From: a virus
Taxonomy: Duplodnaviria > Heunggongvirae > Uroviricota > Caudoviricetes
Direction: 5' to 3' (one strand)
Length of the DNA: 11,921 bases
Virus record (IMG/VR): IMGVR_UViG_2606217106_000005
Span: 1 to 11,921 of that record
Shown here piece by piece: positions 1-11,921 of the stretch; the first letter of the stretch is position 1; the number at the start of each line of letters is the position of its first letter. Both the position numbers and the translations under genes were made by a program. The notes below the pieces were generated by a model. That model did no database searches and was not told the origin of the DNA. It saw only the letters and a program-made list of their open reading frames with translations.

Positions 1-60
1 CCTTCTTATTCATAAGGCGGGACACTTTCAGGATTTTGAATTTATTCAATTTTTTCCTTT

Positions 61-92
61 CTCCAAAATCTCTCCAAAACTTTTCCCCAAAA
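61..92. repeat. Three phased direct repeats CTCCAAAA (61-68), CTCCAAAA (72-79), CCCCAAAA (85-92) just beyond the int stop; candidate integrase arm-type sites
   Basis: Read directly; spacing 11 and 13 bp. In lambda attL the P' arm with three arm-type Int sites lies next to the int 3' end; the assignment here is by analogy only. Confidence 0.3.
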
Positions 93-156
93 CCAGGGCA
101 CGCATTTTACAACACTTTTTTCCTGAAATGGTGACGGATATTCCATATGATGTTTG

Positions 157-1275
157 TTAAATAACCAACTTAACCCATTCCTGACCTCGGGTATCGTTAT
201 AGCGATCGGTGGTAGCCTGGACTTTATGTCCCAGTAATGTTTTTGTATCGACACCCTGTGCGCGGTACAACCGTTCTGACAGGGAGCGTTGTTCATGAAA
301 TGTTGGCGGTGTTTTTCCTGCTGGTGGAATTATTCCAGCCAGATCTCGCGCTTTGGCGAAGTAATCGCTCAGGTTGTCTTTACTCATCGGTTTTGGTTGT
401 TTCTGGTGCCTACTATGGATTAGATATGGACTTAATATTCTGTCTCGGCACCCATCAATAACTTCTTTTAACGTTATCCCAATGGCATCACAGCGTAGTG
501 TAAGCGGTAACGCCAGGCGCATTCCGGTTTTTCCCTGGGTGATATGCAAGTGTTCGTTCCACACATCTGAAAAACGCATGTGGCAAATGTCATCACGGCG
601 CTGACCAGTAACAATCGCAAGAAGCATTGCGTTACGGATAAAGTGTTTTTCAGGCGTTGCGTTGTAAATTTTTTGCCAGTCTTCCAGGGTGAGTCTGGCT
701 CTGGTTACTTTAGGGATCGGTTTACGGGTAGCCTCCGGAGGATTCCATCCAGGAGGAACTTCTCCTGCATGCTGTGCTTCTTTATAAATATCAACCCATA
801 ATCCACGATTTACTCTCGCTGTGCTGACCATGTCTTTATCCAGCCAATCATCCAGTATTAATGCAAAGTCTCTTACTTCCAGTTCTTTCAATGGATGGTT
901 TCCCAGACGGGAAACCAGGTATGCAGCCATTCGGGCTTTTTCTTTGTGAGTTGTAGCTGCAATATCTCCATTTTTCAGTCGCGTGTCCTGTATTTTCAGA
1001 TATCGATCAACCCATGCCTTTAATCTGATACCCCGACGTTTTGTTGCTGACGGACTTTCATCAATTTTGCGCATGAAATATTCAGCTTCTGCTGCAGCTA
1101 TTCGCTGATTGGCTGTGGAAGCGATTTTTTCTGCCTTACCTTTGTCTGTTCCGAGTCCGTGAAATTTTCCAGTCACAGGATTTTTATACTGGTAGTAAAC
1201 TCTGCCAGTTCTGCGATCAAACTTTTCGTAAAGACCGGCTACGTCAGTGCTGTTTTTTCGTGGCCTCGGTGACAT
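157..1275 (-). CDS. int: Phage tyrosine integrase, lambda Int family
   Basis: 372-aa ORF. C-terminal motifs PPTFHEQRSLSERLY and LLGHKVQATTDRYNDTRGQEW align with the lambda Int catalytic HxxR box and the nucleophile Tyr region (DPPTFHELRSLSARLY / LLGHKSDTMASQYRDDRGREW). Start overlaps the 3' end of the xis-like gene, as in lambda. Confidence 0.93.
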   Translation of the reverse strand: MSPRPRKNSTDVAGLYEKFDRRTGRVYYQYKNPVTGKFHGLGTDKGKAEKIASTANQRIAAAEAEYFMRKIDESPSATKRRGIRLKAWVDRYLKIQDTRLKNGDIAATTHKEKARMAAYLVSRLGNHPLKELEVRDFALILDDWLDKDMVSTARVNRGLWVDIYKEAQHAGEVPPGWNPPEATRKPIPKVTRARLTLEDWQKIYNATPEKHFIRNAMLLAIVTGQRRDDICHMRFSDVWNEHLHITQGKTGMRLALPLTLRCDAIGITLKEVIDGCRDRILSPYLIHSRHQKQPKPMSKDNLSDYFAKARDLAGIIPPAGKTPPTFHEQRSLSERLYRAQGVDTKTLLGHKVQATTDRYNDTRGQEWVKLVI

Positions 1276-1522
1276 GAGTTAAAATCTCCTTCAGTGCATC
1301 ATCATCGCCAGTATGAATTTCCGGCGCAATTCCCGTTTCACCAGGCCCAACAAATACTGCTCGGCGATCTATCAGCCAACGCCCACGAATTTTTTGTGGC
1401 CTTGGAACGATGTATCCTAGTTTTCCGTATTTCACCAGGGTAGTGTTTGTTATTGGGAGACTGAACCGTTTTGGTTTCCACTCGTCGAGCGTTATCAGGT
1501 ACTGTTCGCTCATGGCTATCAC
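1244..1522 (-). CDS. xis: Excisionase, lambda Xis-like
   Basis: 92-aa ORF directly upstream of int and overlapping it by 32 bp. Motif YLITLDEW...GRWLI resembles lambda Xis YLTLQEW...REYLF. True start may be the internal Met (MSEQYL, codon at 1511-1513). Confidence 0.75.
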   Translation of the reverse strand: MIAMSEQYLITLDEWKPKRFSLPITNTTLVKYGKLGYIVPRPQKIRGRWLIDRRAVFVGPGETGIAPEIHTGDDDALKEILTHVTEATKKQH

Positions 1523-1574
1523 TCCGGAACGCGCCAGTTGCAGAATATCAACGACAACTGGCGACGGTTGAACA

Positions 1575-4046
1575 TTAAAAATCAGCCTGACTCGGGATCA
1601 GTTTTTGCCAGATAACTGAAACGTATTTTGCCTGGTAACGGGCGTCATCAAGTGCATTATGGCGCTCACCTTCGAATGGAATAGCCGTTCTGGCATCGAA
1701 GTCTATGGCTTTCCCCAGCTCAACGATTGTGCGTACATCGCGATCGTTGTAGTAACGCCACGGGCAGGGGATCCCCTGCCGTTCGTATGAACGGCGCAAA
1801 ATCGTGTTGTCGAAGTTGGCTCCATTTCCCCAGACCTGAACAAAAAATTCACCGGAGTTTTCGTCGATAAATTCCCGCAATTGTAACAGTGCATCATCTA
1901 ACGGGATTTCATCGGTCATAATGGCAGATTGCGCTTCGCGTGATTGCTTAAGCCACCATTTAATGGTGTCCCGATCAATGACTCCGCCAGCAGTTTCCAG
2001 ATCGATAGTCTTACTAAATTCCGGTCCCATATCTCCGGTTTGCGGATCGAAAAATATTGCACCTATTGAGATGATCGGGGCATCAGGATTTTTTCCCATG
2101 GTTTCAAGGTCGATCATTAGATGGTCACACGTCCTGCTGGTGGATGTGATTTCTTGATGACCGTTCACCTTAATTGAGTGATCTGCCGTCTCGCCAGTTT
2201 CATTATCGCTATCGTGATGCTGATTGCCGCCAGTGTTCTCTTTGTGTGGATGTTCAGCGCCTTCCATTTCCTCCGGATCATCTTCCTGAACTTCAACCTG
2301 ATACTCTTCATCGAATGTTTCCTGGTATGTTGCGTCGCCCATCACCGCGCCACAATCAGGGCAGTTGCCGCCGCCGGTCTGACCGCAGGCGGTGCAGATC
2401 TTTTCCGGTTCCTGTTGCACTACTGGTTCAGGTTGTTTCGTTTCTGGCTCGTTTTGTTGCGTACTTGGGCTGTTTTGTTCCGCTTTCTGGTCGTTCTGTT
2501 CCGTTTCTTGCTGGTTCTGGTTCACAGAATCGCGGGTCTGGATCCCATTAACCCATTTCGGATCATTCGGGTCGCTAATCCCTTCAACAAATTCACCACG
2601 TGATACTGCAAGCAGTTCATCGGCGTCAGGCTGGCTGATATTGGCTGCCTGCATAATTTTGTTTACTTCGTCAGCGGTAACTTTTACTGACCCTGGTTGT
2701 GCGGTCGTGTCAGATGCACCAGTATTTTGTTGTGAACCTGAGTATGTACCGTTTTTGCGGGCGAAATATTCTTCTTTCGTGATTTCAGTAGCCCCAGCAG
2801 ACAGCGCCTTATCCAGACCAGAAAGTTTGTTTGCGCGACCGTATTTTTCGCCATCCTTGTCGGTGAAGAGGAAGTAGAACGGCCCCTCACGTTCTACAGA
2901 TGGTTCGACTTCCACTTTGCATTCGGTTTTTTCGTTGTCTGGAATTGCCGTTTCCACTGCATCAGTTTCTGGTACTGGCGACGAGAGAGTATCAGTTGCG
3001 CTCTGATTTGTTCCTTCATCTTCAAACACGCCCTTTGTAGTCAGGTATTCAGTAATGTATTTGTTCAGTGCCACAGGGTCTTTGTGAATGTCGATCGGAC
3101 GTTCACGGACAAGGCCAAAAATAGTCTGGCGGTCGTAGCGAAGGGCATCAGGCTGTTTGCGCATTGATGCCGAGATACGCTTCCAGTCTTCGCGGTCGTT
3201 GTCGATAACTTCATTTTTTGCCCAGCGATGGATGCTGCCGTCAATGTTTCCGGCATCCACATCACCAGGCCAGAGAGCGTAGGCCAGTTCGTCATCCAGT
3301 GTTTTCCATGTCTGCTTGTATTCGCGATGAATGGCAGCAATGACCGGGCTGATTTTTCCTGTTGAATTTTCAGTGTGCTGTTGATTGGTTCTGGCGCGGG
3401 CGAGATCAACAACAGACGTGTATTTTCCGGTTTCCTTGCGTTCACCTTCGCGACGTTTTTTCCAGATGCGCATCTCTGCCTGAATTTCGGGCCATTTGGC
3501 ACCAGGCTTACATTTATGCTTAACGCACCCGATGGCATGCAGCTTAAGCTCCGGATACATGGCGTTAACTTCTGGCATTTTCATCAACGCTTCAACGATA
3601 TGTCCGTCGAATGTTGCCATGTCTTCCTGCAACAATTCCTGTGCGTTAATAACCATATCAACGGTGATGTTTTCACATGTGTCGAACTTAACCATGAGAG
3701 CGTTCTGTACTTCAGGGGCCAGCTTGTCAAAAGTGACGTTCATCAGATCGGATTCAGTCTCAACCGGGACAAAAGAAGCAGAATCCTCATCCCAGCGGTT
3801 TTCCTGCATATATTCAGCATCCCATGAATCGAGGGCAGGGCGGGGTATGCCAGGTTTATCCTCGCAGATAATAAATTTATAAGCGCAGTCCTGAGCAGCC
3901 GGATAATGTTCCAGGAACTGCCAGTGAAATTTTGCTCGAGCACGGCGTTCGTCGCCAGCTTCAATGGCTGTGGCTACAGCCACAGCGCCTTCTTCCCTTG
4001 TTGCCAGTTCGTCAGGAATGGCGGCGCAAATAAAGACTTTACTCAT
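1575..4046 (-). CDS. Large phage exonuclease with C-terminal DEDDh (DnaQ-like) 3'-5' exonuclease domain, Cys4 zinc ribbon and acidic low-complexity linker
   Basis: 823-aa ORF with GAGG SD. C-terminal motifs MIDLETMG (Exo I, D-x-E), GNGANFDNTIL (Exo II), HNALDDARYQ (Exo III, H...D) are visible. CTACGQTGGGNCPDCG is a C-x2-C-x8-C-x2-C ribbon. Sits where lambdoid phages carry exo/recombination genes; I recall similar proteins annotated exodeoxyribonuclease VIII-like, but cannot verify. Confidence 0.8.
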   Translation of the reverse strand: MSKVFICAAIPDELATREEGAVAVATAIEAGDERRARAKFHWQFLEHYPAAQDCAYKFIICEDKPGIPRPALDSWDAEYMQENRWDEDSASFVPVETESDLMNVTFDKLAPEVQNALMVKFDTCENITVDMVINAQELLQEDMATFDGHIVEALMKMPEVNAMYPELKLHAIGCVKHKCKPGAKWPEIQAEMRIWKKRREGERKETGKYTSVVDLARARTNQQHTENSTGKISPVIAAIHREYKQTWKTLDDELAYALWPGDVDAGNIDGSIHRWAKNEVIDNDREDWKRISASMRKQPDALRYDRQTIFGLVRERPIDIHKDPVALNKYITEYLTTKGVFEDEGTNQSATDTLSSPVPETDAVETAIPDNEKTECKVEVEPSVEREGPFYFLFTDKDGEKYGRANKLSGLDKALSAGATEITKEEYFARKNGTYSGSQQNTGASDTTAQPGSVKVTADEVNKIMQAANISQPDADELLAVSRGEFVEGISDPNDPKWVNGIQTRDSVNQNQQETEQNDQKAEQNSPSTQQNEPETKQPEPVVQQEPEKICTACGQTGGGNCPDCGAVMGDATYQETFDEEYQVEVQEDDPEEMEGAEHPHKENTGGNQHHDSDNETGETADHSIKVNGHQEITSTSRTCDHLMIDLETMGKNPDAPIISIGAIFFDPQTGDMGPEFSKTIDLETAGGVIDRDTIKWWLKQSREAQSAIMTDEIPLDDALLQLREFIDENSGEFFVQVWGNGANFDNTILRRSYERQGIPCPWRYYNDRDVRTIVELGKAIDFDARTAIPFEGERHNALDDARYQAKYVSVIWQKLIPSQADF

Positions 4047-4139
4047 TTTGTTTTAACCTCATGACAGATTTAAGGATGAACAAATCCCTGCCATTGCTGG
4101 CATATAAGAATGAAACCGGATATTTATTACGGAACTGTT

Positions 4140-4331
4140 TTAAAGACCTGCCGGGATTTCGATATTATCCTGGTGAATAACTTTATCGACCGGGTAACAG
4201 TTACCGGGAATTTTCTGTTCGGTTGCTGCAGTCATACACTCCTGCATTGTCCTGTGAACACTGACTGCAATATCAACTGGCTCTCCGGAAACAAGAAAAA
4301 CTGTCAGAACAAGTGCAAATGCTGTATTCAT
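4140..4331 (-). CDS. Small hypothetical protein (63 aa) with hydrophobic signal/TM-like N-terminus
   Basis: Start ATG overlaps the stop of the upstream small ORF (ATGA, translational coupling). N-terminus MNTAFALVLTVFLVSG is hydrophobic. Located in the early-left region where lambda has kil/cIII-type small genes. Confidence 0.5.
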   Translation of the reverse strand: MNTAFALVLTVFLVSGEPVDIAVSVHRTMQECMTAATEQKIPGNCYPVDKVIHQDNIEIPAGL

Positions 4332-4516
4332 TGCCAGCATCCTTTTTGTATCGGACGTAAACGGGCCAACATTGAAAGAATGCATATTTTATTTAATAGC
4401 TCCCGTTCGTGTTTTCTCTTGTTAATGGCATCTTCAGTAAATACAGGGTTACTGATAGTGACACCAATTTCAAAACAACCTTCAGACGTATTAACGTTTG
4501 GTAATAACGTTTTCAT
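4328..4516 (-). CDS. Small hypothetical protein (62 aa)
   Basis: Internal Met chosen over the 97-aa ORF-track start because it is preceded by GAGGG 7 nt upstream; stop overlaps the next gene start. Confidence 0.45.
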   Translation of the reverse strand: MKTLLPNVNTSEGCFEIGVTISNPVFTEDAINKRKHERELLNKICILSMLARLRPIQKGCWQ

Positions 4517-5005
4517 TATCGCGCCCTCAACAATGAGTTTTGTGATGCGGTGCCTGGTGCCTCCAGGTGACGTTAACCAGTTAACAATTAACGCCGGATA
4601 CAGAGAATCCAACCATAACACTGTTTTTGGTTTTAACTGTTCCGCGTGCGCTTAGCCGCATTCACCGCATCACAAAATTCACTTTAAAAAGGGCGGCAGA
4701 GCAGTCACGGAGTAAAACTGATACCGCCAAACGTCACCAGAAAATTGATAACAGAGGGCGTTGCAGCGGGGTTGTCACTTAAGCGTATGGTCAACCTGAC
4801 AACCCGGTGTCCTCAACGGGGGAAGGAATACCCCCGCCATACTTACCGCCGCGCCATTTCGCGGATTGCCACAACCAGAAGCGCACGGTCGAAGAAATTT
4901 AACGACAAGACTTATATGCAAAGGGATCTCGCCGTGCGCTTTCGTGTTATGCCCTGACTTTTCAGGGTAAATTAACCTGTGGAAACCTGTTTTTACTGGC
5001 GCTAA

Positions 5006-5245
5006 TCAGTTAGCGTTTCTGGCTAACCAGCGATGCGCGGCAGCTTCGGTTTTAAACGTTTTACTTTTGGTATACGTCATCGCGGTAAACGTGCCGTCCT
5101 GATTGGGAAACACGCCACATACCAGAGATTCGTTGTTGCCAAGCTCGATAGTATCCATGCTGACCTCATTTCCCCTTAACGCTGGGGTAGCGGAACTAAA
5201 AACCTGCTGCGCTGTTATACAAAGTGTTCCCGCCGTCATGTTCAT
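5006..5245 (-). CDS. Hypothetical first gene of the early-left operon (79 aa)
   Basis: First ORF downstream of the predicted leftward promoter; GAGG upstream of the MNM start cluster; no family recognised. Confidence 0.5.
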   Translation of the reverse strand: MNMTAGTLCITAQQVFSSATPALRGNEVSMDTIELGNNESLVCGVFPNQDGTFTAMTYTKSKTFKTEAAAHRWLARNAN

Positions 5246-5339
5246 ACGCCTCGGGCTGGCTACTTAATCCCTGACCACTGCCGGGTAACTCTAGGTATTG
5301 CCCTGTATTGTGTGGGACGGGATGGGTTGGTATGGGAAA

Positions 5340-5408
5340 ACTATAGGAAATGCCTAATTGCTTGTCAATAGGCTATGCCTAATGATTTGGGTGCGACCTA
5401 ATAGGTGA
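5340..5408 (-). promoter_or_regulatory. P_L-like early-left promoter with three operator sites (O_L)
   Basis: Minus-strand TTGACA (plus coords 5363-5368), 17-bp spacer, TATAGT (plus coords 5340-5345). Operator-like sites TAGG-N5-CCTA (5343-5355), TAGGC-tat-GCCTA (5369-5381) and CCTAATAGG (5397-5405), centres about 26 bp apart. Confidence 0.6.
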
Positions 5409-5476
5409 TGGTTTGTGGGAGAGGTAGTAGGAGTTAACTAACGGGAACTAGGAATTTCCCGTCGGACCATATAAGT

Positions 5477-5953
5477 TTAAGTTCCTGTCTTGGTGATGTT
5501 CTGGCTTTTCCGTTTTGATTCTTGATTTTTCAGATAGTTAGCTACCTTCATTTCCATTGCGGCAATGTAGGCGCGAACGTCATGATCAACCCAACTAGGC
5601 TCCGTAGCATTTCCAGATAAGAGGAAAGCCACAATTGCTCTTTTTTCATCAGAGGCGGCTTGATAAAGGCTGTTTATGTCTAAAAGTTCACTTTTTGTAT
5701 CTGAAGTGGATGGGGTTGGTATGGGGTATTCGTTAAGCCCCCAATGCTCTGGACCAACCACATCAGAAAAGAAACGCCATAGTTCTGGAAGTTTGTCTTT
5801 ACTTATCGAACCTTTCTTAATCCAGTCATGGATTGATGGTGGTTGGACTTTGAAATGACGTGCGATTTCCGCCTTTGATTTGACGGCTCCTGATGCAATT
5901 TTTTTGTTGATGGCCTGCTCTATCGCTCGGCCTAAGTCTTTACCACTAAGCAT
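5477..5953 (-). CDS. racR: Prophage repressor, RacR-like HTH protein
   Basis: 158-aa ORF between outward-facing promoters. HTH-like segment SKAEIARHFKVQPPSIHDWIKKGS. Length and N-terminus match my recollection of E. coli Rac prophage RacR; followed divergently by ydaS/ydaT-like genes, as in Rac. Confidence 0.8.
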   Translation of the reverse strand: MLSGKDLGRAIEQAINKKIASGAVKSKAEIARHFKVQPPSIHDWIKKGSISKDKLPELWRFFSDVVGPEHWGLNEYPIPTPSTSDTKSELLDINSLYQAASDEKRAIVAFLLSGNATEPSWVDHDVRAYIAAMEMKVANYLKNQESKRKSQNITKTGT

Positions 5954-5981
5954 TGCTTAATAGTCTCCTATGCGCATCGCG

Positions 5982-6050
5982 TTAGGCAATCCCTACTCTC
6001 GAAGCGTTAGGCATAGCCTATTGACAATCGCATTAGGCTAAGCCTAATAT
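5982..6050 (+). promoter_or_regulatory. P_R-like early-right promoter with three operator sites (O_R), including a perfect 17-bp palindrome
   Basis: TTGACA at 6021-6026, 18-bp spacer, TAATAT at 6045-6050. Perfect palindrome ATTAGGCTAAGCCTAAT at 6032-6048 overlaps spacer and -10; TTAGGC-ata-GCCTA at 6007-6020; TTAGGC half-site at 5982-5987. Confidence 0.65.
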
Positions 6051-6077
6051 TATTGTGTGTTTTTTGGAGTTCATTCG

Positions 6078-6401
6078 ATGAAAAAAGATAACTATTCATT
6101 CAAACGAGCTTGTGCTGTTGTCGGTGGGCAATCAGCAATGGCTAGGCTTTTAGGTGTATCTCCTCCAAGCGTAAATCAATGGATCAAAGGTGTACGTCAG
6201 TTGCCTGCTGAGAGATGTCCTGCGATTGAACGAGCAACAAAAGGTGGTGTCCTGTGTGAAGAACTTCGTCCTGATGTTGATTGGACATACTTACGACGCT
6301 CGTCATGTTATTCGCAGAATATGTCGATGAAGCAACCAAATGACGAAAACGATCATACCCGAAGCATCAAGAGGCAAATGATTCATGAAAATCAAACATG
6401 A
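6078..6401 (+). CDS. ydaS: Cro-like HTH protein, YdaS-like
   Basis: ATG at 6078 preceded by GGAG (6066-6069). Motif GGQSAMARLLGVSPPSVNQWIKGVRQLPAERCPAIERAT is typical of YdaS/Cro-like proteins. First gene after P_R. Confidence 0.8.
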   Translation: MKKDNYSFKRACAVVGGQSAMARLLGVSPPSVNQWIKGVRQLPAERCPAIERATKGGVLCEELRPDVDWTYLRRSSCYSQNMSMKQPNDENDHTRSIKRQMIHENQT

Positions 6402-6810
6402 GCACATCCGCATGGCGATGAATGCCTGGGCATATCCTGATGGTGAGAAAGTTCCAGCAGCTGGAATAACCCAGGCTTATTTTGAGTTGGGTATGACGTT
6501 CCCAGAACTGTATGACGACAGCCATCCGGAAGCCCTGGCTCGCAATACCCAGAAAATTTTCCGCTGGGTAGAGAAAGACACCCCTGATGCAGTTGAAAAA
6601 ATTCAGGCGTTGTTACCAGCGATCGAAAAGGCAATGCCACCTTTGCTGGTGGCCAGAATGCGCAGCCACAGTTCAGCTTATTTTCGGGAGCTGGTGGAGA
6701 CGCGGGAACGACTGGTGAGAGACGCTGATGATTTTGTCGCAGTGGCGATCGCTGGTTTCAACCAGATGAATCGTGGTGGCCCTGCAGGAAATATTGTGGC
6801 TGTGCATTGA
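6385..6810 (+). CDS. ydaT: YdaT-like protein, putative toxic partner of YdaS
   Basis: 141-aa ORF overlapping the ydaS stop by 17 bp; GAGG SD; same position and size as Rac prophage ydaT. Confidence 0.7.
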   Translation: MKIKHEHIRMAMNAWAYPDGEKVPAAGITQAYFELGMTFPELYDDSHPEALARNTQKIFRWVEKDTPDAVEKIQALLPAIEKAMPPLLVARMRSHSSAYFRELVETRERLVRDADDFVAVAIAGFNQMNRGGPAGNIVAVH

Positions 6811-6881
6811 CTCGCAATATTCATACCGGATCACTTCCGGCAATTTGTGAGTAAAAAGATTCGGTATCAAAAGAGGTGAGT

Positions 6882-7952
6882 ATGGCTAACGCCTGGCTCA
6901 GATTATGGCATGACATGCCAAATGACCCTAAGTGGCGAACAATTGCCAGGGTGTCAGGGCAGCCAATTGCAACAGTGATGGCAGTGTATATCCACCTCCT
7001 GGTGAGCGCGTCACGAAATGTCACGCGAGGTCACATTGATGTCACGACAGAAGATTTGGCAAGTGCGCTCGACGTGACAGAAGAGGTAATTGATTCAATT
7101 TTGCAGACGATGCAGGGGCGGGTACTTGATGGTGATTTAATCACTGGATGGGAAAAACGCCAGGTGCTTAAAGAGGACAACGGCAATATTTCGCAAACCG
7201 CAAAATCTCCTGCAGAGCGCAAGAGGGCGCAGCGAGAGAGGGAAAGAAAGCGGGAACAAAATGGCGATTGTCACGGCGCGTCACGAAATGTCACGCACAT
7301 GTCACGACGAGTCACGACAGATAAAGATACAGATAAAGATACAGATCAAGAAGATCAAAACACTATGGTCCATGGCGTAAAAAACGCCACGAACCAGGCA
7401 GGGGATGTTCAGACCGTCAATCTTGGTCAGCCAGCAGGCACGACACCGGAAGCCGATTCAGCGTATGCGCTGAAAGCCGATTCGGGCGCTGTGCAGCAGG
7501 TGATGACCGCAAGGCCGGAGCAATCACACCAACTGCAGCAGCCCGAAGCCGATTCCGCCATTCAGCGGGAAGCCGATCGGGTAGTCCCGGAAAACACCGG
7601 GCAGTCTGTGGGACGAGTGGATTATCCGGATGTGTTCGAACAGGTCTGGCGGGAGTACCCGTTGCGTGCTGGGGCAAACCCGAAGAAATCCGCTTTCAGT
7701 GCCTGGAAGGCCAGATTACGCGAGGGGGTGCCACCAGAGGCCATGCTGGATGGCGTGAGGCGTTACGCAAGATACTTGGCGGCTACCGGGAAAACGGGAA
7801 CGGAATTTGTTCAGCGAGCGACGACGTTTTTTGGACCGGACCGGAATTTTGAAAACCCCTGGTTGCTCCCGGTAAGCGGCACGAACAACCAGCGTTGTGT
7901 TAATCATATTTCTGAACCGGACACCGAAATTCCGCCGGGATTCAGAGGGTAA
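6882..7952 (+). CDS. Phage replication initiation protein (replisome organizer, O-like) containing the putative origin
   Basis: ATG at 6882 with GAGG SD. N-terminus AWLRLWHDMPNDPKWRTIARVSGQPIATVMAVYIHLL resembles phage replisome-organizer N-domains. C-terminal FEQVWREYPLRAGANPKKSAFSAWKAR...WLLP resembles the conserved C-domain of phage replication proteins. Iteron clusters lie inside the gene. Confidence 0.75.
   Translation: MANAWLRLWHDMPNDPKWRTIARVSGQPIATVMAVYIHLLVSASRNVTRGHIDVTTEDLASALDVTEEVIDSILQTMQGRVLDGDLITGWEKRQVLKEDNGNISQTAKSPAERKRAQRERERKREQNGDCHGASRNVTHMSRRVTTDKDTDKDTDQEDQNTMVHGVKNATNQAGDVQTVNLGQPAGTTPEADSAYALKADSGAVQQVMTARPEQSHQLQQPEADSAIQREADRVVPENTGQSVGRVDYPDVFEQVWREYPLRAGANPKKSAFSAWKARLREGVPPEAMLDGVRRYARYLAATGKTGTEFVQRATTFFGPDRNFENPWLLPVSGTNNQRCVNHISEPDTEIPPGFRG
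7006..7050 (+). repeat. Iteron cluster 1: four TCAC(G) repeats at one-helical-turn spacing
   Basis: TCACG at 7011, 7021, 7042 and TCACA at 7031; inverted copy CGTGAC at 7073-7078; a 21-bp block GCGCGTCACGAAATGTCACGC is repeated exactly at 7276-7296. Confidence 0.6.
7271..7342 (+). repeat. Iteron cluster 2 (five TCACG repeats) followed by a 12-bp tandem duplication AGATAAAGATAC x2
   Basis: TCACG at 7271, 7281, 7291, 7302, 7312 (spacing 10-11 bp); tandem 12-mers at 7319-7330 and 7331-7342, then degenerate AGATCAAG copies; A/T-rich flank consistent with a DNA-unwinding element. Confidence 0.6.
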
Positions 7953-7989
7953 CAGATTTCAGGTCATGGGGTAATTTTCAGGAGGGCTT

Positions 7990-8412
7990 GTGGCAAAAGT
8001 TTTTACACAAGAAGAGCGGGAAAAAATTAAAGGGCAGGTTGTTGAACTCGTACGCCAGAGTGGGCGCGAGACGTTACGACAACTGGAAACTAAAACTGGG
8101 GCAACAAGATATCTGATGAGCGTTCTGGCCAGAGAGCTGGTTGCCAGTGGCGATGTATACAATTCTGGCTACGGGTTATTCCCGTCTGAACAGGCTCGTA
8201 AAGACTGGCAAAATGCCCGCAAAAAACTCTCAAGGGCAAAGCTGAAGAAACCATCTGCGGTTGATCCGGACCTTATCTGGTCATTACCAGATGGCGAAAT
8301 ACGCCGCTACGACAGGCGTCTGAACATAATCTGTCTCGAGTGCCGGAAGAGCGAAGTTATGCAGCGCGTACTGGCGTTTTATCAGGGGAATTTTGAGGAG
8401 GTGGTGCGGTGA
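7990..8412 (+). CDS. Hypothetical protein (140 aa), first gene of a translationally coupled trio
   Basis: GTG start with GGAGGG SD (7981-7986); stop overlaps the next start (GTGA). Confidence 0.55.
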   Translation: MAKVFTQEEREKIKGQVVELVRQSGRETLRQLETKTGATRYLMSVLARELVASGDVYNSGYGLFPSEQARKDWQNARKKLSRAKLKKPSAVDPDLIWSLPDGEIRRYDRRLNIICLECRKSEVMQRVLAFYQGNFEEVVR

Positions 8413-8663
8413 GTGAATCAAAATGCCAGGTTAATGGCAACAAGATAGAACCATGTGCAGCACTGGCAAAGTCCCTTGAGCATGATGCTGAATACACGAT
8501 GCGAAAAGGTCTGCTGATATACAAAATCTGGAATGAGAGTTTAACTCGCGGTCCTGATTTTGTGATGTTGCGTTCCGGTGAATTTTCTAAATTACCAGTT
8601 CGGGTTTCATTTTGTCCGTTCTGTGGTGAAAGTCTGAAAACGTGGGAGAACAGAAATGAATGA
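8409..8663 (+). CDS. Hypothetical small Cys4 protein (84 aa), possible zinc ribbon
   Basis: GTG start after GAGGAGG; cysteines in CQVNGNKIEPC and CPFCGES suggest a metal-binding ribbon; overlaps both neighbours. Confidence 0.5.
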   Translation: MSESKCQVNGNKIEPCAALAKSLEHDAEYTMRKGLLIYKIWNESLTRGPDFVMLRSGEFSKLPVRVSFCPFCGESLKTWENRNE

Positions 8664-8967
8664 AATTAAAGAAATACCAGTAGTACGTGATGAATATGGC
8701 TGCTGGACGCATCCTGAATATGAAAAATTCTGTGACGGTCGGGAATATATTTCAACGGAAGAGTTTAACGCCTGGATGGAGGAAAATAATCTTCAATACG
8801 TCCTCTGCTTCAGAGATGAAGGATGTGCTGACCTTGATGCGTGTGATGCTGATATTTCTGCATGGGAACCGGAACGACCAGAGGGCAATGGATGGTTTAT
8901 TGGTTCAATACATGACACCGAAGATGGCCCGGTTTGTGTATGGCTGAGAAATAAGGCCGAAGCATAA
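8656..8967 (+). CDS. Hypothetical acidic Cys-rich protein (103 aa)
   Basis: ATG overlapping the upstream stop (ATGAATGA); GGGAGA SD; six cysteines; no family recognised. Confidence 0.55.
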   Translation: MNEIKEIPVVRDEYGCWTHPEYEKFCDGREYISTEEFNAWMEENNLQYVLCFRDEGCADLDACDADISAWEPERPEGNGWFIGSIHDTEDGPVCVWLRNKAEA

Positions 8968-9272
8968 AGGCTATAAACCGACTAACAACTAAATACTGAA
9001 GATTTAAATCAGAAACGATTTTTATTAAATCCTTAACCGGAGGGATTCTGCACCCTCAGAACATCAGGAGGCCGTCTGAAAGGGCGGAACAGATAATGCT
9101 TACGTTGAAACATTTTATCGACATACCAACATGGTTAGCCGTCATTGCTTTTGTTAAAATACACATCCACTTTTCTGTGCAATGTTTAACCACTGGTCAT
9201 ATCAAATGGCATTCATGCGAACCATGATATAGAATCATGGCTTGAGAGAGTCGATGAAAGCGCAACTATGGT

Positions 9273-9851
9273 ATGAGAGACATTGATGTAAGAAAGGCTG
9301 TGCATGCCAAGATTCTGAGAGATCATCATAAAGATCCTGACACCCTAATCATTGATGAGTTTACGATGAATCTAGGGGCTAGCAGAGCTGATATAGCAGT
9401 GATCAATGGGCTTATACATGGTTATGAGTTGAAGAGCAAGAGTGATAACTTGCTCAGATTACCAGCGCAGGTGCAACATTACTCATCAGTGATGGATAAA
9501 GTAACTTTGGTTGTCTCTGATTGCCATCTTTATGATGCTTTAAGCATAGTTCCATCATGGTGGGGGATAAAGCAAGTTACGCAAGGTGCACGGCAAGGTA
9601 TCCATTTAAAAACAATTCGAACTAGCAAGTTGAATCCACAAGTGGACAAACTTTCCTTAACAATGCTTCTTTGGAAAGATGAATTGCTTTCCCTATTAAG
9701 TGATGTAGGGGAGCTACAGAATTTGAAAAATAAACCTAAACGCGTCTTATGGTCAAAACTCGCCAATAGTATGGATGTTGGCGAGCTTCGTGAAGCTGTT
9801 CGAGTTAAACTTAAAGCCCGTAAAGAGTGGCGAGTTGCTCAACAACCTTAG
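9273..9851 (+). CDS. PD-(D/E)XK-type nuclease-fold protein (192 aa), sce7726-like by recollection
   Basis: Motif arrangement IIDEF (E29) ... RADIAVING (D40) ... GYELKSK (E52-x-K54) matches the restriction-endonuclease-like core. Putative extended -10 (TGaTATAGA, 9225-9233) upstream. Confidence 0.7.
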   Translation: MRDIDVRKAVHAKILRDHHKDPDTLIIDEFTMNLGASRADIAVINGLIHGYELKSKSDNLLRLPAQVQHYSSVMDKVTLVVSDCHLYDALSIVPSWWGIKQVTQGARQGIHLKTIRTSKLNPQVDKLSLTMLLWKDELLSLLSDVGELQNLKNKPKRVLWSKLANSMDVGELREAVRVKLKARKEWRVAQQP

Positions 9852-10908
9852 TTATGTGATGGTTTTGCCCAATCCTACGCCATACCTCTGGGCTACCAAA
9901 TTTATAGTTACCAGAGGGATTGGCTTTGTAGGCTTGATACTCGTTTGCATAATATTCTATGTCTCTATCTCCCGCACAGAATGTAGGCCCTGAATATTCT
10001 CGATGAGCAAGAATATCCTCACTATGTTTACCATATTGTTCATAACCAAAGCGATTAGCTACTCTTCCTCGAAATACCCAAAAGTCATTATCTCCAGAGT
10101 ATCTGACGCTGGCAGATACGCTAGGGAATCGCGTCGAAAGCCTATTAAAGTCGGGGTGCTGTACTCCATAATCACTATAAATCACATTTCTGGCAAGTTC
10201 TTTTCTATTCATTAAACTCTGCCATAAAATCCACTCGATTCGAGGTTGAGAATATAGACCAACAGAAATATCACTGAGATCTGTAGGAAATGAACCCCCA
10301 GAAAGAATCACTTTTCTGTATTCATTGAGGTGCGCCAGATTGTTTATCAATCCCATTGCCAAAGTATATAGTTCGCCGGAATTAATTTTATCCTCGGTTA
10401 ACTCATCTCTTAAGTCAATAATTATATCAATATTTGATAAAGGAATTCCCAGATGATTAATGTAATGCGTTATTAATTGTGGGTTAACCAGATCTAACGT
10501 GGTTAATCTCAAGCATATTTCATTCTGCATTAATTCATCAATCGCTCTTTTATAGTTAGATGGGCGAGTTGGTGAACTGACAGGAATAACTCTTATCCCC
10601 ATATCTCTAACTTGATTAACCGCATTTATTATAGGGTAATGATCTTCAGGAGAAATAAAATGCTCTTCAATTAATAATCCATCAATATAAACACCTTGCA
10701 TATCTGAGCAAGATTTTGAGACTTTCTTTCCGAACTCTATAAGAGTCTCGTTATAACTCTTTAAGGCAATACCTGAATCAGGGTCAATTGGCACTGGTTC
10801 AATTTCGAGTAATGGCAAAATTTTTGATTTCTTTTCAATGGATAGCTGCGATAAAGCTGATAACTCAGAACGTTTCGCTTTCAGAATAGGAATATATGAA
10901 ATTGTCAT
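9811..10908 (-). CDS. Beta-protein / sce7725-like family protein (365 aa), function unknown
   Basis: Long ORF with AAGG SD 8 nt upstream of ATG. N-terminal MTISYIPILKAKRSELSAL matches my memory of the conserved start of this family. No Walker or other catalytic motifs recognised. 3' end overlaps the convergent 192-aa gene by 41 bp. Confidence 0.7.
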   Translation of the reverse strand: MTISYIPILKAKRSELSALSQLSIEKKSKILPLLEIEPVPIDPDSGIALKSYNETLIEFGKKVSKSCSDMQGVYIDGLLIEEHFISPEDHYPIINAVNQVRDMGIRVIPVSSPTRPSNYKRAIDELMQNEICLRLTTLDLVNPQLITHYINHLGIPLSNIDIIIDLRDELTEDKINSGELYTLAMGLINNLAHLNEYRKVILSGGSFPTDLSDISVGLYSQPRIEWILWQSLMNRKELARNVIYSDYGVQHPDFNRLSTRFPSVSASVRYSGDNDFWVFRGRVANRFGYEQYGKHSEDILAHREYSGPTFCAGDRDIEYYANEYQAYKANPSGNYKFGSPEVWRRIGQNHHITKVVEQLATLYGL

Positions 10909-11339
10909 GTTAATACCTTATACAGAATCAATTAACAATTAATGGTTCTTCGGACATTGAAATTTATATCGCAAAAATTGGCAAACTCTCCTCGACTACT
11001 CACTTGTGGGTATCCTGGCGTAAAAGGAATGACTTGGCAATACCCGGTGTGATCATAAGTCATTGAAAATGATCATTTTTATCAGTCTTTCTTCCATGAT
11101 GAATGCTAATGCCATTTGATTTGTTGAGGTGAAAACTGTTAAAAATCAAAACGATGTAATTGAAATGAACGTTCGGTAGCATTCACGCTTTAAATGTTTC
11201 TTTTGTGCTGATTGGATGAATTTGGGTCACTTCTGATGAGAGATGTTGCAGGAAAAGAAGTTGGCATTGATCTATTGGATAGTTAGAATTACTGCGGGTG
11301 CTTGAGGCTATCTGCCTCAGGCATGAACACCAAAAGGCA

Positions 11340-11420
11340 GATAGAGAAAAGCCCCAGTTAACATTACGCGTCCGGCAAGACGCTTAACATTAATCTGAGG
11401 CCAATTTCATGCTTTGCACA
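11340..11420 (-). ncRNA. Candidate Sok-like antisense RNA of the hok locus (approximate)
   Basis: Inferred only from the canonical hok/sok organisation (antisense RNA opposite the hok mRNA leader/mok start); no clear promoter or terminator could be pinned down by eye. Confidence 0.25.
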
Positions 11421-11465
11421 TGTAGGTTAGCCTCTTACGTGCCGAAAGGCAAGGAGAAGCAGGCT

Positions 11466-11621
11466 ATGAAGCAGCAAAAGGCGATGTTAATCGCCCTGAT
11501 CGTCATCTGTTTAACCGTCATAGTGACGGCACTGGTAACGAGGAAAGACCTCTGCGAGGTACGAATCCGAACCGGCCAGACGGAGGTCGCTGTCTTCACA
11601 GCTTACGAACCTGAGGAGTAA
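11466..11621 (+). CDS. hokD: Hok-family type I toxin (HokD/RelF-like), 51 aa
   Basis: Translation MKQQKAMLIALIVICLTVIVTALVTRKDLCEVRIRTGQTEVAVFTAYEPEE has the Hok signature (single TM helix, LTRK..LCE.R) and matches my recollection of E. coli RelF/HokD. GGAG SD; in-frame upstream ATG at 11409 gives a 70-aa mok-like extension. A 9-bp inverted repeat (11308-11316 / 11336-11344) lies in the leader. Confidence 0.85.
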   Translation: MKQQKAMLIALIVICLTVIVTALVTRKDLCEVRIRTGQTEVAVFTAYEPEE

Positions 11622-11921
11622 GAGACCAGGCGGGGGAGAATCCCATAAGCGCTAACTTAAGGGTTGAACCATCTGAAGAATGCGACGCCTCGGTGCCTCG
11701 TTAAGACGATGCCTCGCGTTCTTCAATTGCGTTTTGTAGGCTGTCAGGGATACTGTCCCACGAATGGCCACCTGTAAGCTCCAGATGACCATTTTTGTTA
11801 TTCTCCACAACGAGTTAGTTCTTCTTTTCGGATCCGGCACTTCTGGGGGGGGAATCCAGCGATGGCTGGATTATGTCGTCAATTAAAAATGCGGCGAGTA
11901 GATTAGCAAATATCCACGCTT

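Follow-up and report, generated by a model that had tools for sequence, protein, structure and literature searches.

RacR, YdaS and YdaT in the cI, cro and cII positions of a mosaic lambdoid prophage early region

Gene organization

The DNA analyzed here (the window) is 11,921 nucleotides in length, and carries the genes racR, ydaS and ydaT, all intact within positions 5477-6810, where the original prediction had placed them. The racR gene is transcribed divergently from ydaS and ydaT, and the 3′ end of ydaS overlaps ydaT by 17 nt; we take ATG 6078 rather than GTG 6057 as the ydaS start because of the alignment with K-12 YdaS. Exactly this combination of RacR, YdaS and YdaT is found in about 10% of complete E. 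coli genomes. The genes and their context are as follows.

157-1275, minus strand: lambda-type integrase (Pfam Arm-DNA-bind_1, Phage_integrase)
1244-1513, minus strand: excisionase (Pfam Exc)
4140-5158, minus strand: Qin-type dicBF segment of the PL operon (context; predicted RacR-repressed cargo)
4140-4331, minus strand: DUF1482 gene (Pfam DUF1482)
4328-4516, minus strand: dicB (within the dicBF segment; annotation of homologous loci)
4691-4742, minus strand: DicF sRNA (Rfam DicF, 76.7 bits)
5006-5158, minus strand: ydfA-like gene (Pfam DUF1391/DUF1482 matches in the segment and annotation of homologous loci)
5477-5953, minus strand: racR, 158 aa, predicted prophage repressor (CI analogue)
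6078-6401, plus strand: ydaS, 107 aa, Cro-like HTH regulator
6385-6810, plus strand: ydaT, 141 aa, CII-like activator, CP-933P/3C4R-type allele
6882-7952, plus strand: replication initiation or replisome-organizer gene in the O position (PHROG 3729 'replication initiation protein', 6.8e-258)

The int and xis genes form the potC-side end of the prophage, and potC adjoins the integrase gene in the nearest genomes. The Pfam matches confirm the integrase and excisionase that had been proposed upstream of the triad, and the PHROG 3729 match does the same for the downstream replication gene, whose product has a C-terminal PPGFRG motif in common with K-12 YdaU and is annotated as a 'phage replisome organizer' in ST866. 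The early genes of the window are all full length, including int, xis, an 823-aa exonuclease and the initiator. After the initiator gene the window lacks a helicase-loader gene, which RM8385 and 25-07338 do have in that position.

Relationships of the three proteins

The triad was originally proposed to be that of K-12 Rac, and protein alignment bears this out for RacR and YdaS but not for YdaT. RacR is identical to K-12 RacR at 145 of its 158 residues (92%, E=8e-112), scores 246.8 bits over the whole protein against the NCBIfam RacR equivalog NF049929 (cut-off 200 bits), and is 100% identical to WP_000948454.1 of strain RM8385; it is only 16-25% identical to the other repressors. RacR has no Pfam match at E<=0.01 and therefore no Peptidase_S24 domain, and this Pfam search detected no peptidase or LexA-type domain in it, i.e. 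nothing resembling the C-terminal S24 autocleavage domain of SOS-cleavable repressors. No relative was found among PDB sequences, the sole match (E=0.63) being one of chance, and the single-sequence AlphaFold2 model is all-helical and of low confidence (mean pLDDT 50.2, pTM 0.32), too poor in quality to be used for fold comparison. RacR and DicA have been placed among the approximately 150-aa non-cleavable GfoR/GtgR-type repressors that need an antirepressor (Lemire et al. 2011; PMC3121763), and this grouping, together with the lack of a peptidase or LexA-type domain, implies that any response to mitomycin C would need an antirepressor. No antirepressor is visible in the 11.9-kb window, and the LexA box CTGT-N8-ACAG has no match there.

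YdaS is identical to K-12 YdaS at 83 of 98 aligned residues (85%; 78% over the full length), and matches both Pfam YdaS_toxin (PF15943; 3.8e-30, 103.9 bits against a gathering threshold of 30) and Pfam P22_Cro (1e-8, 35.3 bits against a threshold of 30.2), as well as the solved PDB Cro proteins 3bd1 (2.8e-10) and 5w8y; it falls in PHROG 35. Both its scores and its position, as the first gene divergent from the repressor, assign it to the Cro-like family. The analogy with Cro is nonetheless incomplete, because, in contrast to lambda Cro, the K-12 YdaS reportedly leaves racR unrepressed (PMC9638921).

YdaT is the member that departs from K-12, with 33% identity to K-12 YdaT (E=7e-16), and is thus not a high-identity orthologue of it. 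Over its full length it is near-identical to PDB 3C4R (about 97%, 7.8e-90) and shares 86-89% identity with the CP-933P-type YdaT (PDB 8BT1; 1.1e-78); it also matches Pfam YdaT_toxin (PF06254; 39.6 bits against a cut-off of 21) and belongs to PHROG 163, 'CII-like transcriptional activator' (9.5e-45). The Arg-Trp pair of helix alpha3 that contacts DNA (R57/W58 in K-12; PMC11879457) is conserved, with 'F-RW' here aligned by BLAST to K-12 'YHRW', and K-12 H56 is not conserved in the same alignment.

Operators and promoters

The OL- and OR-like operators anticipated in the original prediction are readily recognized. The palindrome TTAGGC-N3-GCCTAA, with up to two mismatches, occurs five times in the 11.9-kb window, and all five sites flank racR (5343 and 5368 on one side; 5982, 6007 and 6033 on the other), against 0.29 expected by chance; none of 200 shuffles gave five. 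Matches with three mismatches are marginally enriched (10 against 3.96 expected, with 1 of 200 shuffles reaching 10). The palindromes are spaced 25-26 bp apart and overlap two divergent near-consensus promoters, their half-sites (TTAGGC and GCCTAA) are those of K-12 Rac with variable spacers, and the published RacR consensus is (T/A)TAGGC-n3-GCCTA(T/A) (PMC9638921). The arrangement is that of cognate RacR operators: three sites lie between racR and ydaS, another, weaker, covers the racR ATG, and a further pair is upstream of PL.

5340-5368, minus strand: PL-like early-left promoter, TTGACA-17 nt-TATAGT, 11/12 consensus matches
5343-5357: OL operator ATAGGAAATGCCTAA, 2 mismatches to TTAGGC-N3-GCCTAA; fits the published RacR consensus (PMC9638921)
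5368-5382: OL operator ATAGGCTATGCCTAA, 1 mismatch; 25 bp from the 5343 site; identical in K-12 Rac
5387-5401: possible weak third OL site, 3 mismatches; in partial overlap with the ACCTAATAGGT palindrome, K-12-conserved
5946-5960: weak operator CTAAGCATTGCTTAA across the racR ATG, 3 mismatches; corresponds to the published O3
5982-5996: OR operator TTAGGCAATCCCTAC, 2 mismatches; identical in K-12
6007-6021: OR operator TTAGGCATAGCCTAT, 1 mismatch; abuts the PR -35 box
6033-6047: OR operator TTAGGCTAAGCCTAA, perfect palindrome; between the PR -35 and -10 boxes
6021-6050, plus strand: PR-like promoter, PydaST equivalent, TTGACA-18 nt-TAATAT
6168-6200, minus strand: putative equivalent of K-12 PracR4 (reverse promoter, PRE analogue) inside ydaS, by alignment
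6378-6395: YdaT-box ATGATTCATGAAAATCAA, inverted repeat spanning the ydaT ATG

The PL-like promoter is conserved in K-12 Rac, is overlapped by both OL operators, and is directed towards the ydfA-like gene, DicF, dicB, and the exonuclease, xis and int genes. At the other side of racR, the -35 and -10 boxes are the same as those of PydaST verified experimentally in K-12 (PMC11879457), and the perfect palindrome TTAGGCTAAGCCTAA differs from its K-12 counterpart in the spacer alone. The spacer of O3 in K-12 falls on the racR start codon (PMC9638921).

At the ydaS/ydaT junction, the YdaT-box ATGATTCATGAAAATCAA provides the cognate inverted repeat (A/T)TGATT-N6-AATCAA; it has the same sequence as the K-12 box mapped by footprinting (PMC11879457) and differs by 1 nt from the CP-933P OM site (PMC9986795). 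It is the sole one-mismatch site in the window, and it is this site only that is meaningful; with up to three mismatches allowed, the pattern shows no enrichment (9 sites in the window against 11.5 expected). In vivo, CP-933P YdaT is able to activate the YdaT-box promoter of Rac (PMC11879457). In the putative PracR4 equivalent the -10 box TACGCT is conserved and the -35 is CTGACG rather than the TTGACG of K-12, a synonymous change; the deduced spacer between the boxes (as published for K-12; PMC11879457) is 21 nt, which is long for a sigma-70 promoter. K-12 YdaT reportedly binds the repressor-cro intergenic region of its own prophage and the CP-933P-type YdaT does not, so that this input may be missing from the hybrid circuit here.

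Mosaic structure

None of the complete E. coli genomes in the collection contains the whole window in one piece, and the best matches cover 85-86% of it at 97% identity. The window is a mosaic, with RM8385-like left and center parts (98.9% over 2609-7950) and an ST866-like right part (98.8% over 6379-11644). The homology breakpoints lie at 6379 and 6408, such that the YdaT-box is itself the junction between Rac-type and backbone-type sequence. Within the potC-prophage backbone ydaT is kept at 96-99% identity while the repressor/cro pair is swapped, and other repressor/cro pairs occupy the same slot in the same backbone. The window neatly illustrates the swapping of immunity modules at a cis element that is itself conserved.

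We speculate, tentatively, that the 30 bp common to all versions (6379-6408, comprising the YdaT-box and the first ydaT codons) might be a fixed recombination linker between potC-type lambdoid prophages. What would be exchanged, and this is equally conjectural, are whole repressor/cro cassettes (RacR/YdaS, PaaR2-TA/YdaS-like, or a 139-aa repressor) with one ydaT retained. If there is such a linker, a Qin-type DicF/dicB operon would come under RacR in this hybrid, homoimmunity with K-12-type Rac would be expected, with co-resident Rac-type prophages cross-silencing one another, and racR would remain essential here even without ydaST.

One record, vB_EcoS-683R6, was considered as a free phage with this immunity, being the sole RacR-bearing record in the phage collection searched, and was rejected; it is a predicted prophage, because host genes (abgAB, ttcA) are part of the record and the study behind it dealt with genome-located phages.

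Discussion

We conclude, with a probability of about 0.9, that the DNA around racR is the immunity region, or lysis/lysogeny switch, of a lambdoid E. coli prophage that has integrated beside potC, in which RacR, YdaS and YdaT are the analogues of CI, Cro and CII. The homology, the gene order, the anatomy of operators and promoters, the YdaT-box and the mosaic structure are read directly from the DNA. The placement of the triad in the cI/cro/cII positions of a lambdoid early region, as was first suggested for this DNA, agrees with the gene order, the operators and PHROG 163, and YdaS and YdaT have been assigned in this way before (Casjens 2003, Jobling 2018, Jurenas 2021, Prolic-Kalinsek 2023, Wons 2025; PMC5917428, PMC8630535, PMC9986795, PMC11879457).

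The activities of the components, namely DNA binding, repression, activation and toxicity, are extrapolated from experiments with K-12 Rac and CP-933P. RacR would bind the 15-bp TTAGGC-N3-GCCTAA palindromes on either side of racR, shutting off both a strong rightward PR/PydaST promoter serving ydaS, ydaT and the replication gene, and a strong leftward PL promoter serving the ydfA-like gene, DicF, dicB, exonuclease, xis and int, and would also autoregulate racR. In K-12 the RacR operators and racR autoregulation have been described (PMC9638921), as have the repression of ydaST by RacR and the essentiality of racR in the lysogen (PMC5700373, PMC5700377). YdaS, from the first gene of the rightward operon, would be the Cro analogue, and a YdaT tetramer, as the CII analogue, would bind the YdaT-box on its own start codon and activate the reverse promoter inside ydaS, giving more racR transcription and establishing or maintaining repression. 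Losing RacR alone should do harm through derepression of both early operons, but the same would be true of any prophage repressor, and this is no mark of a dedicated toxin-antitoxin system.

The significance of this assignment goes little beyond correct annotation, in that the Pfam and PGAP labels 'toxin YdaS/YdaT' are misleading for what are Cro- and CII-position regulators of a prophage switch. Cross-immunity with K-12 Rac is predicted, and RacR control of the division inhibitors DicF and DicB, as predicted here, could bear on filamentation phenotypes of carrier strains.

The chances are a little below even that the switch is intact in an element that is otherwise a defective (cryptic) prophage, with the module merely silencing leftover early genes and induction yielding no virions. 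Both K-12 Rac and CP-933P are cryptic, the near-identical prophage of RM8385 has a frameshifted exonuclease gene and is cut short by a second prophage, and the 25-07338 relative has IS3, IS4-like and IS66 insertions; the window itself has no helicase-loader gene after the initiator, no LexA box and no antirepressor, and its RacR has no autocleavage domain. However, the early genes of the window have all kept their full length, and the closest backbone, ST866, shares this replication region without a loader and is largely complete in its late genes (a Q-like antiterminator, lysis genes, large terminase, portal and capsid, with the small terminase subunit annotated as partial). Moreover, full-sized Rac-like prophages have been reported and zygotic induction shows that the Rac circuit works (PMC5917428).

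Far less probable, to the point of being improbable, is that RacR-YdaS-YdaT is mainly a toxin-repressor or addiction module with YdaS and YdaT as dedicated toxins stabilizing the element rather than phage regulators, since the family names YdaS_toxin and YdaT_toxin stem from a prediction tool and are disputed (PMC5917428), the CP-933P homologues have been shown to be regulators and not a TA pair (Jurenas 2021; PMC8630535), and ydaT is constant while the repressor/cro pair swaps, as in a regulatory cassette. It is the case that K-12 racR is essential unless ydaST or the entire prophage is removed, that ectopic YdaS/YdaT is toxic in K-12 (PMC5700373, PMC5700377), and that the locus stays unmutated (Wons 2025); however, there is no protein-protein neutralization, racR-silenced cells recover by losing Rac (bioRxiv 10.64898/2026.09.06.749655), and the original authors thought it likely that a toxin-repressor pair acting purely through transcription cannot bring about post-segregational killing (PMC5700373). 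With divergent transcription, no PADLOC match to the triad and the literature against a TA pair, the triad does not qualify as a type II toxin-antitoxin system. The further suggestion that it is addiction-like fares poorly, and is unsupported as regards post-segregational killing, given that K-12 tolerates deletion of the entire Rac prophage (PMC5700373).

Comparison with known systems

The immunity region proposed here resembles several known systems to different degrees. The Gifsy-type GfoR/GtgR repressors are similar in their small size (RacR here is 158 aa) and in RacR having no peptidase domain; they are served by LexA-controlled antirepressors, whereas this window has neither an antirepressor gene nor a LexA box. 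In lambda, CI and CII have no detectable sequence homology to RacR and YdaT, the S24 autocleavage domain of the CI class is not detected in RacR, there are three strong OL sites compared to two in the OL region here, the CII site is a direct repeat whereas YdaT recognizes an inverted repeat (PMC9986795), and there is an N/nut system, none being evident here. The order and orientation of the genes are nonetheless those of cI-cro-cII, and OL/PL and OR/PR with several palindromic operators likewise lie on either side of the repressor gene, with int/xis at the left end, an O-type replication gene to the right of cII and, here by analogy, a reverse promoter that a CII-like protein activates and that reads into the repressor gene.

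CP-933P/Sp12 of E. coli O157:H7 (paaR2-paaA2-parE2/ydaS/ydaT) belongs to the same lambdoid backbone family, has the same type of ydaT (86-89% identical, solved as 8BT1), and likewise has its YdaT operator where ydaS meets ydaT. It differs in that its repressor is PaaR2 with an embedded ParE2 toxin-antitoxin pair, as opposed to RacR and no TA pair; its cro-like gene is only about 23% identical to ydaS here, and its operators are of the GTTTAGTAA-type inverted repeat. Its YdaS and YdaT were shown by experiment to be Cro and CII analogues.

The DNA homology of K-12 Rac with the window is limited to 5171-6408. Its ydaT is a different allele (33% identity), its ydaS product is 9 residues shorter than that encoded here by the gene overlapping ydaT, its int/xis and replication genes differ, its attachment site is ttcA rather than potC, it has recE/recT in place of an Rv2179c-like exonuclease, and its PL cargo is other than the Qin-type DicF/dicB. 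Within the switch itself, however, the two have the same divergent layout, orthologous racR (92%) and ydaS (85%), the same operator half-sites and PydaST -35/-10 boxes, and an identical YdaT-box, ATGATTCATGAAAATCAA.

Identity and organization of racR, ydaS and ydaT

The original prediction placed a RacR-YdaS-YdaT module in the cI-cro slot, and the ORF list together with the raw sequence gives three intact genes exactly where predicted.

Genes of the module
5477–5953, minus strand: racR, 158 aa, intact
6078–6401, plus strand: ydaS, 107 aa, intact
6385–6810, plus strand: ydaT, 141 aa, intact, with a 17-nt overlap with ydaS

The ydaS start is the ATG at 6078, preceded by GGAG, as seen from the K-12 alignment; the GTG at 6057 appears only in the mechanical ORF list. 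Compared to translations from an MG1655 record, RacR shares 145/158 residues (92%) with K-12 RacR and YdaS 83/98 (85%), but YdaT only 48/144 (33%; E = 7e-16). The alignments support homology of all three proteins, and the observation of the module is correct and well above chance. However, the description as the 'same triad' as in K-12 holds strictly for RacR and YdaS, and for YdaT at the family level only; this ydaT allele is the one factual correction needed, in addition to two over-reaches concerning addiction and inducibility. RacR scores 246.8 bits against the NCBIfam RacR equivalog (cut-off 200), and YdaS matches Pfam YdaS_toxin (3.8e-30), P22_Cro (1e-8) and HTH_3, as well as several solved Cro proteins (e.g. 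3bd1, 2.8e-10). YdaT exceeds the Pfam YdaT_toxin threshold, has a near-identical match in 3C4R, an unpublished structure (7.8e-90), and a close one in 8BT1, the YdaT of prophage CP-933P (1.1e-78), and its family in PHROGs is described as a 'CII-like transcriptional activator' (9.5e-45).

The predicted placement of ydaS and ydaT in the cro position largely holds, but is already established. That they are cro-position genes rather than toxins was argued explicitly by Jobling 2018 (PMC5917428), citing Casjens 2003, demonstrated in CP-933P by Jurenas et al. 2021 (PMC8630535), given structural support by Prolic-Kalinsek et al. 2023 (PMC9986795), and shown in K-12 Rac by Wons et al. 2025 (PMC11879457).

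Operators, promoters and the proposed switch

A 15-bp palindrome, TTAGGC-N3-GCCTAA, is repeated at a spacing of 25–26 bp in both non-coding flanks of racR. There are five copies in the window with up to 2 mismatches, all beside racR and none elsewhere, against a mean of 0.29 in dinucleotide-preserving shuffles, of which 0/200 reached five.

Regulatory sites (OL and OR, operators left and right of racR; PL and PR, leftward and rightward early promoters)
5343 and 5368: OL palindromes, up to 2 mismatches
5387: weaker palindrome copy
5946: weaker palindrome copy, across the racR ATG
5982, 6007 and 6033: OR palindromes, up to 2 mismatches
5368..5340, minus strand: PL analogue, TTGACA-17-TATAGT
6021..6050, plus strand: PR analogue, TTGACA-18-TAATAT
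6378–6395: YdaT-box, ATGATTCATGAAAATCAA, inverted repeat across the ydaT start codon

No strong sigma-70 match occurs in 5200–6900 besides the PL and PR analogues, both of which overlap palindromes. Neither the half-sites nor the promoter hexamers differ from those of K-12 Rac in the alignment, while the 3-nt spacers and inter-site DNA do, as would be expected of operators that are functional and share one specificity. Both the motif and the three sites at OR agree with RacR operators O1–O3 as footprinted and defined in PMC9638921, and the TTGACA/TAATAT pair is that of PydaST, a promoter verified by experiment (PMC11879457). The predicted 'full OL/OR-like operators' are fairly described, with two strong sites rather than three at OL.

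The YdaT-box is identical to that footprinted in K-12 by Wons et al. (PMC11879457), differs at 1 base from the CP-933P OM operator TTGATT-N6-AATCAA (PMC9986795), and is invariant among K-12 Rac, the RM8385 Rac-like element and one CP-933P-like element. Through this box K-12 YdaT activates PracR4, a reverse promoter inside ydaS, up to 29-fold, leading to more racR expression, like lambda CII at PRE (PMC11879457). The published PracR4 −10 box is conserved in the window. The −35 box (6195–6200), TTGACG as published for K-12, is CTGACG in the window and RM8385, a difference that arises from a CAA-to-CAG change synonymous in ydaS. We note that the published −35/−10 spacing is 21 nt by our own count, an unusual distance for a sigma-70 promoter. 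Because the Rac YdaT-box promoter is activated in vivo equally well by the CP-933P and the Rac YdaT (PMC11879457), the hybrid circuit of RacR and YdaS with a CP-933P-type YdaT is functionally plausible.

The mechanism with the most support is a bistable switch of the lambda kind, whose anatomy is seen in the window and whose binding and regulatory steps we infer from published studies of K-12 Rac and CP-933P. RacR would turn off PR (ydaS, ydaT and replication) from OR and PL (DicF, dicB, exonuclease, xis and int) from OL, and would regulate its own gene. YdaS would work from the Cro position, and YdaT, from the PR transcript, would bind the YdaT-box and promote leftward transcription into racR.

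Neighbouring genes

An excisionase and a lambda-type integrase lie left of racR in the window, together with other features flanking the module.

Features flanking the module
1575–4046, minus strand: 'exonuclease', 823 aa, C-terminal Rv2179c-like 3'-5' exoribonuclease domain (Pfam, 2.2e-67)
4140–5158, minus strand: Qin-type dicBF segment (ydfA-like DUF1391 gene, DicF sRNA, dicB, DUF1482 gene), directly downstream of PL
4328–4516, minus strand: dicB
4691–4742, minus strand: DicF sRNA (Rfam, 76.7 bits)
6882–7952, plus strand: replication initiator, 357 aa, right of ydaT (PHROG 3729, 6.8e-258)
7990–8412: DUF977/'Ren-like exclusion protein' gene, directly after the initiator (PHROG 142, 3.8e-47)
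9273–9851, plus strand: sce7726-family gene (NCBIfam, 1.7e-56; PADLOC 'cll', 2.4e-28)
9811–10908, minus strand: 'beta family protein', 365 aa (PADLOC PD-Lambda-2_C, 1.8e-41)
11296–11621, plus strand: hok/sok type I toxin-antitoxin locus (Rfam sok, 119.8 bits over 11296–11471), the Hok-family ORF ending at 11621

The silencer of the DicF and dicB division inhibitors would be RacR rather than DicA. The exonuclease, with a long, acidic, low-complexity N-terminal part, is intact in the window and frameshifted in RM8385. Unlike in RM8385 and 25-07338, the initiator in the window is not followed by a distinct gene for a DnaC- or P-like helicase loader; the C-terminal half of the initiator matches 'DnaD-like helicase loader' PHROGs, and the protein terminates in PPGFRG, a motif common to YdaU and DnaT. 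The sce7726-family and 'beta family protein' genes overlap tail-to-tail where the GC content of the window is lowest (9273–10908, 35–41%), and look like a candidate anti-phage defence moron of the prophage.

Addiction and inducibility

The case for an 'addiction-like' module is weak. In K-12 racR alone is not deletable but the entire prophage is, and the authors of the 'toxin-repressor' description consider post-segregational killing probably impossible with purely transcriptional silencing (PMC5700373); loss of Rac is moreover an escape route of cells from racR silencing (bioRxiv 10.64898/2026.09.06.749655). Thus, by analogy, the module can protect the repressor gene from separate loss, as in any lysogen, but would not protect the element.

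Inducibility, also proposed, is favored by the full length of all early genes in the window and by the largely complete late region of ST866, the closest backbone, although the annotation there gives the small terminase subunit as partial. Counting against it, or complicating it, are the lack of a loader gene after the initiator and the interruption of close relatives by IS elements or a second prophage. A Pfam search found no peptidase domain in RacR, which has been grouped with small non-cleavable repressors needing a LexA-controlled antirepressor encoded elsewhere (PMC3121763), and there is neither a LexA box nor an antirepressor gene in the 11.9-kb window; mitomycin C would therefore report on such an antirepressor, not on RacR cleavage.

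Mosaic structure and relationship to Rac

The RacR/HTH/YdaT-family combination is common in E. coli, with at least 80% of a 1.6-kb query present in 529/5426 complete genomes, where PGAP labels the products RacR, HTH protein and 'toxin YdaT family protein'. BLAST against fetched loci matches RM8385 over 2609–7950 (98.9%) and ST866 over 1–4129 (96%) and 6379–11644 (98.8%), the stretch between being unmatched; homology to K-12 Rac is limited to 5171–6408 (86%). The backbone is shared with ST866, which has an unrelated repressor of 139 aa and its own cro-like gene, and with 25-07338, which has a PaaR2-RelB-ParE cassette with another different cro-like gene; depending on the strain, the same ydaT is thus linked to one of three different repressor/cro cassettes. 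Because ydaT remains 96–99% identical across these strains, the repressor/cro pair is an exchangeable cassette in the cI-cro slot, and ydaT belongs to the backbone. At the right-hand junction K-12 Rac homology stops at 6408 and ST866 homology restarts at 6379, and the 30-bp overlap (6379–6408) comprises the YdaT-box and the first ydaT codons.

In the nearest genomes the integrase adjoins potC, which makes the element a lambdoid prophage integrated next to potC, distinct from Rac itself. K-12 Rac, in contrast, is located at ttcA with intR, recE and recT, with recE/recT in the place held here by the 823-aa exonuclease.
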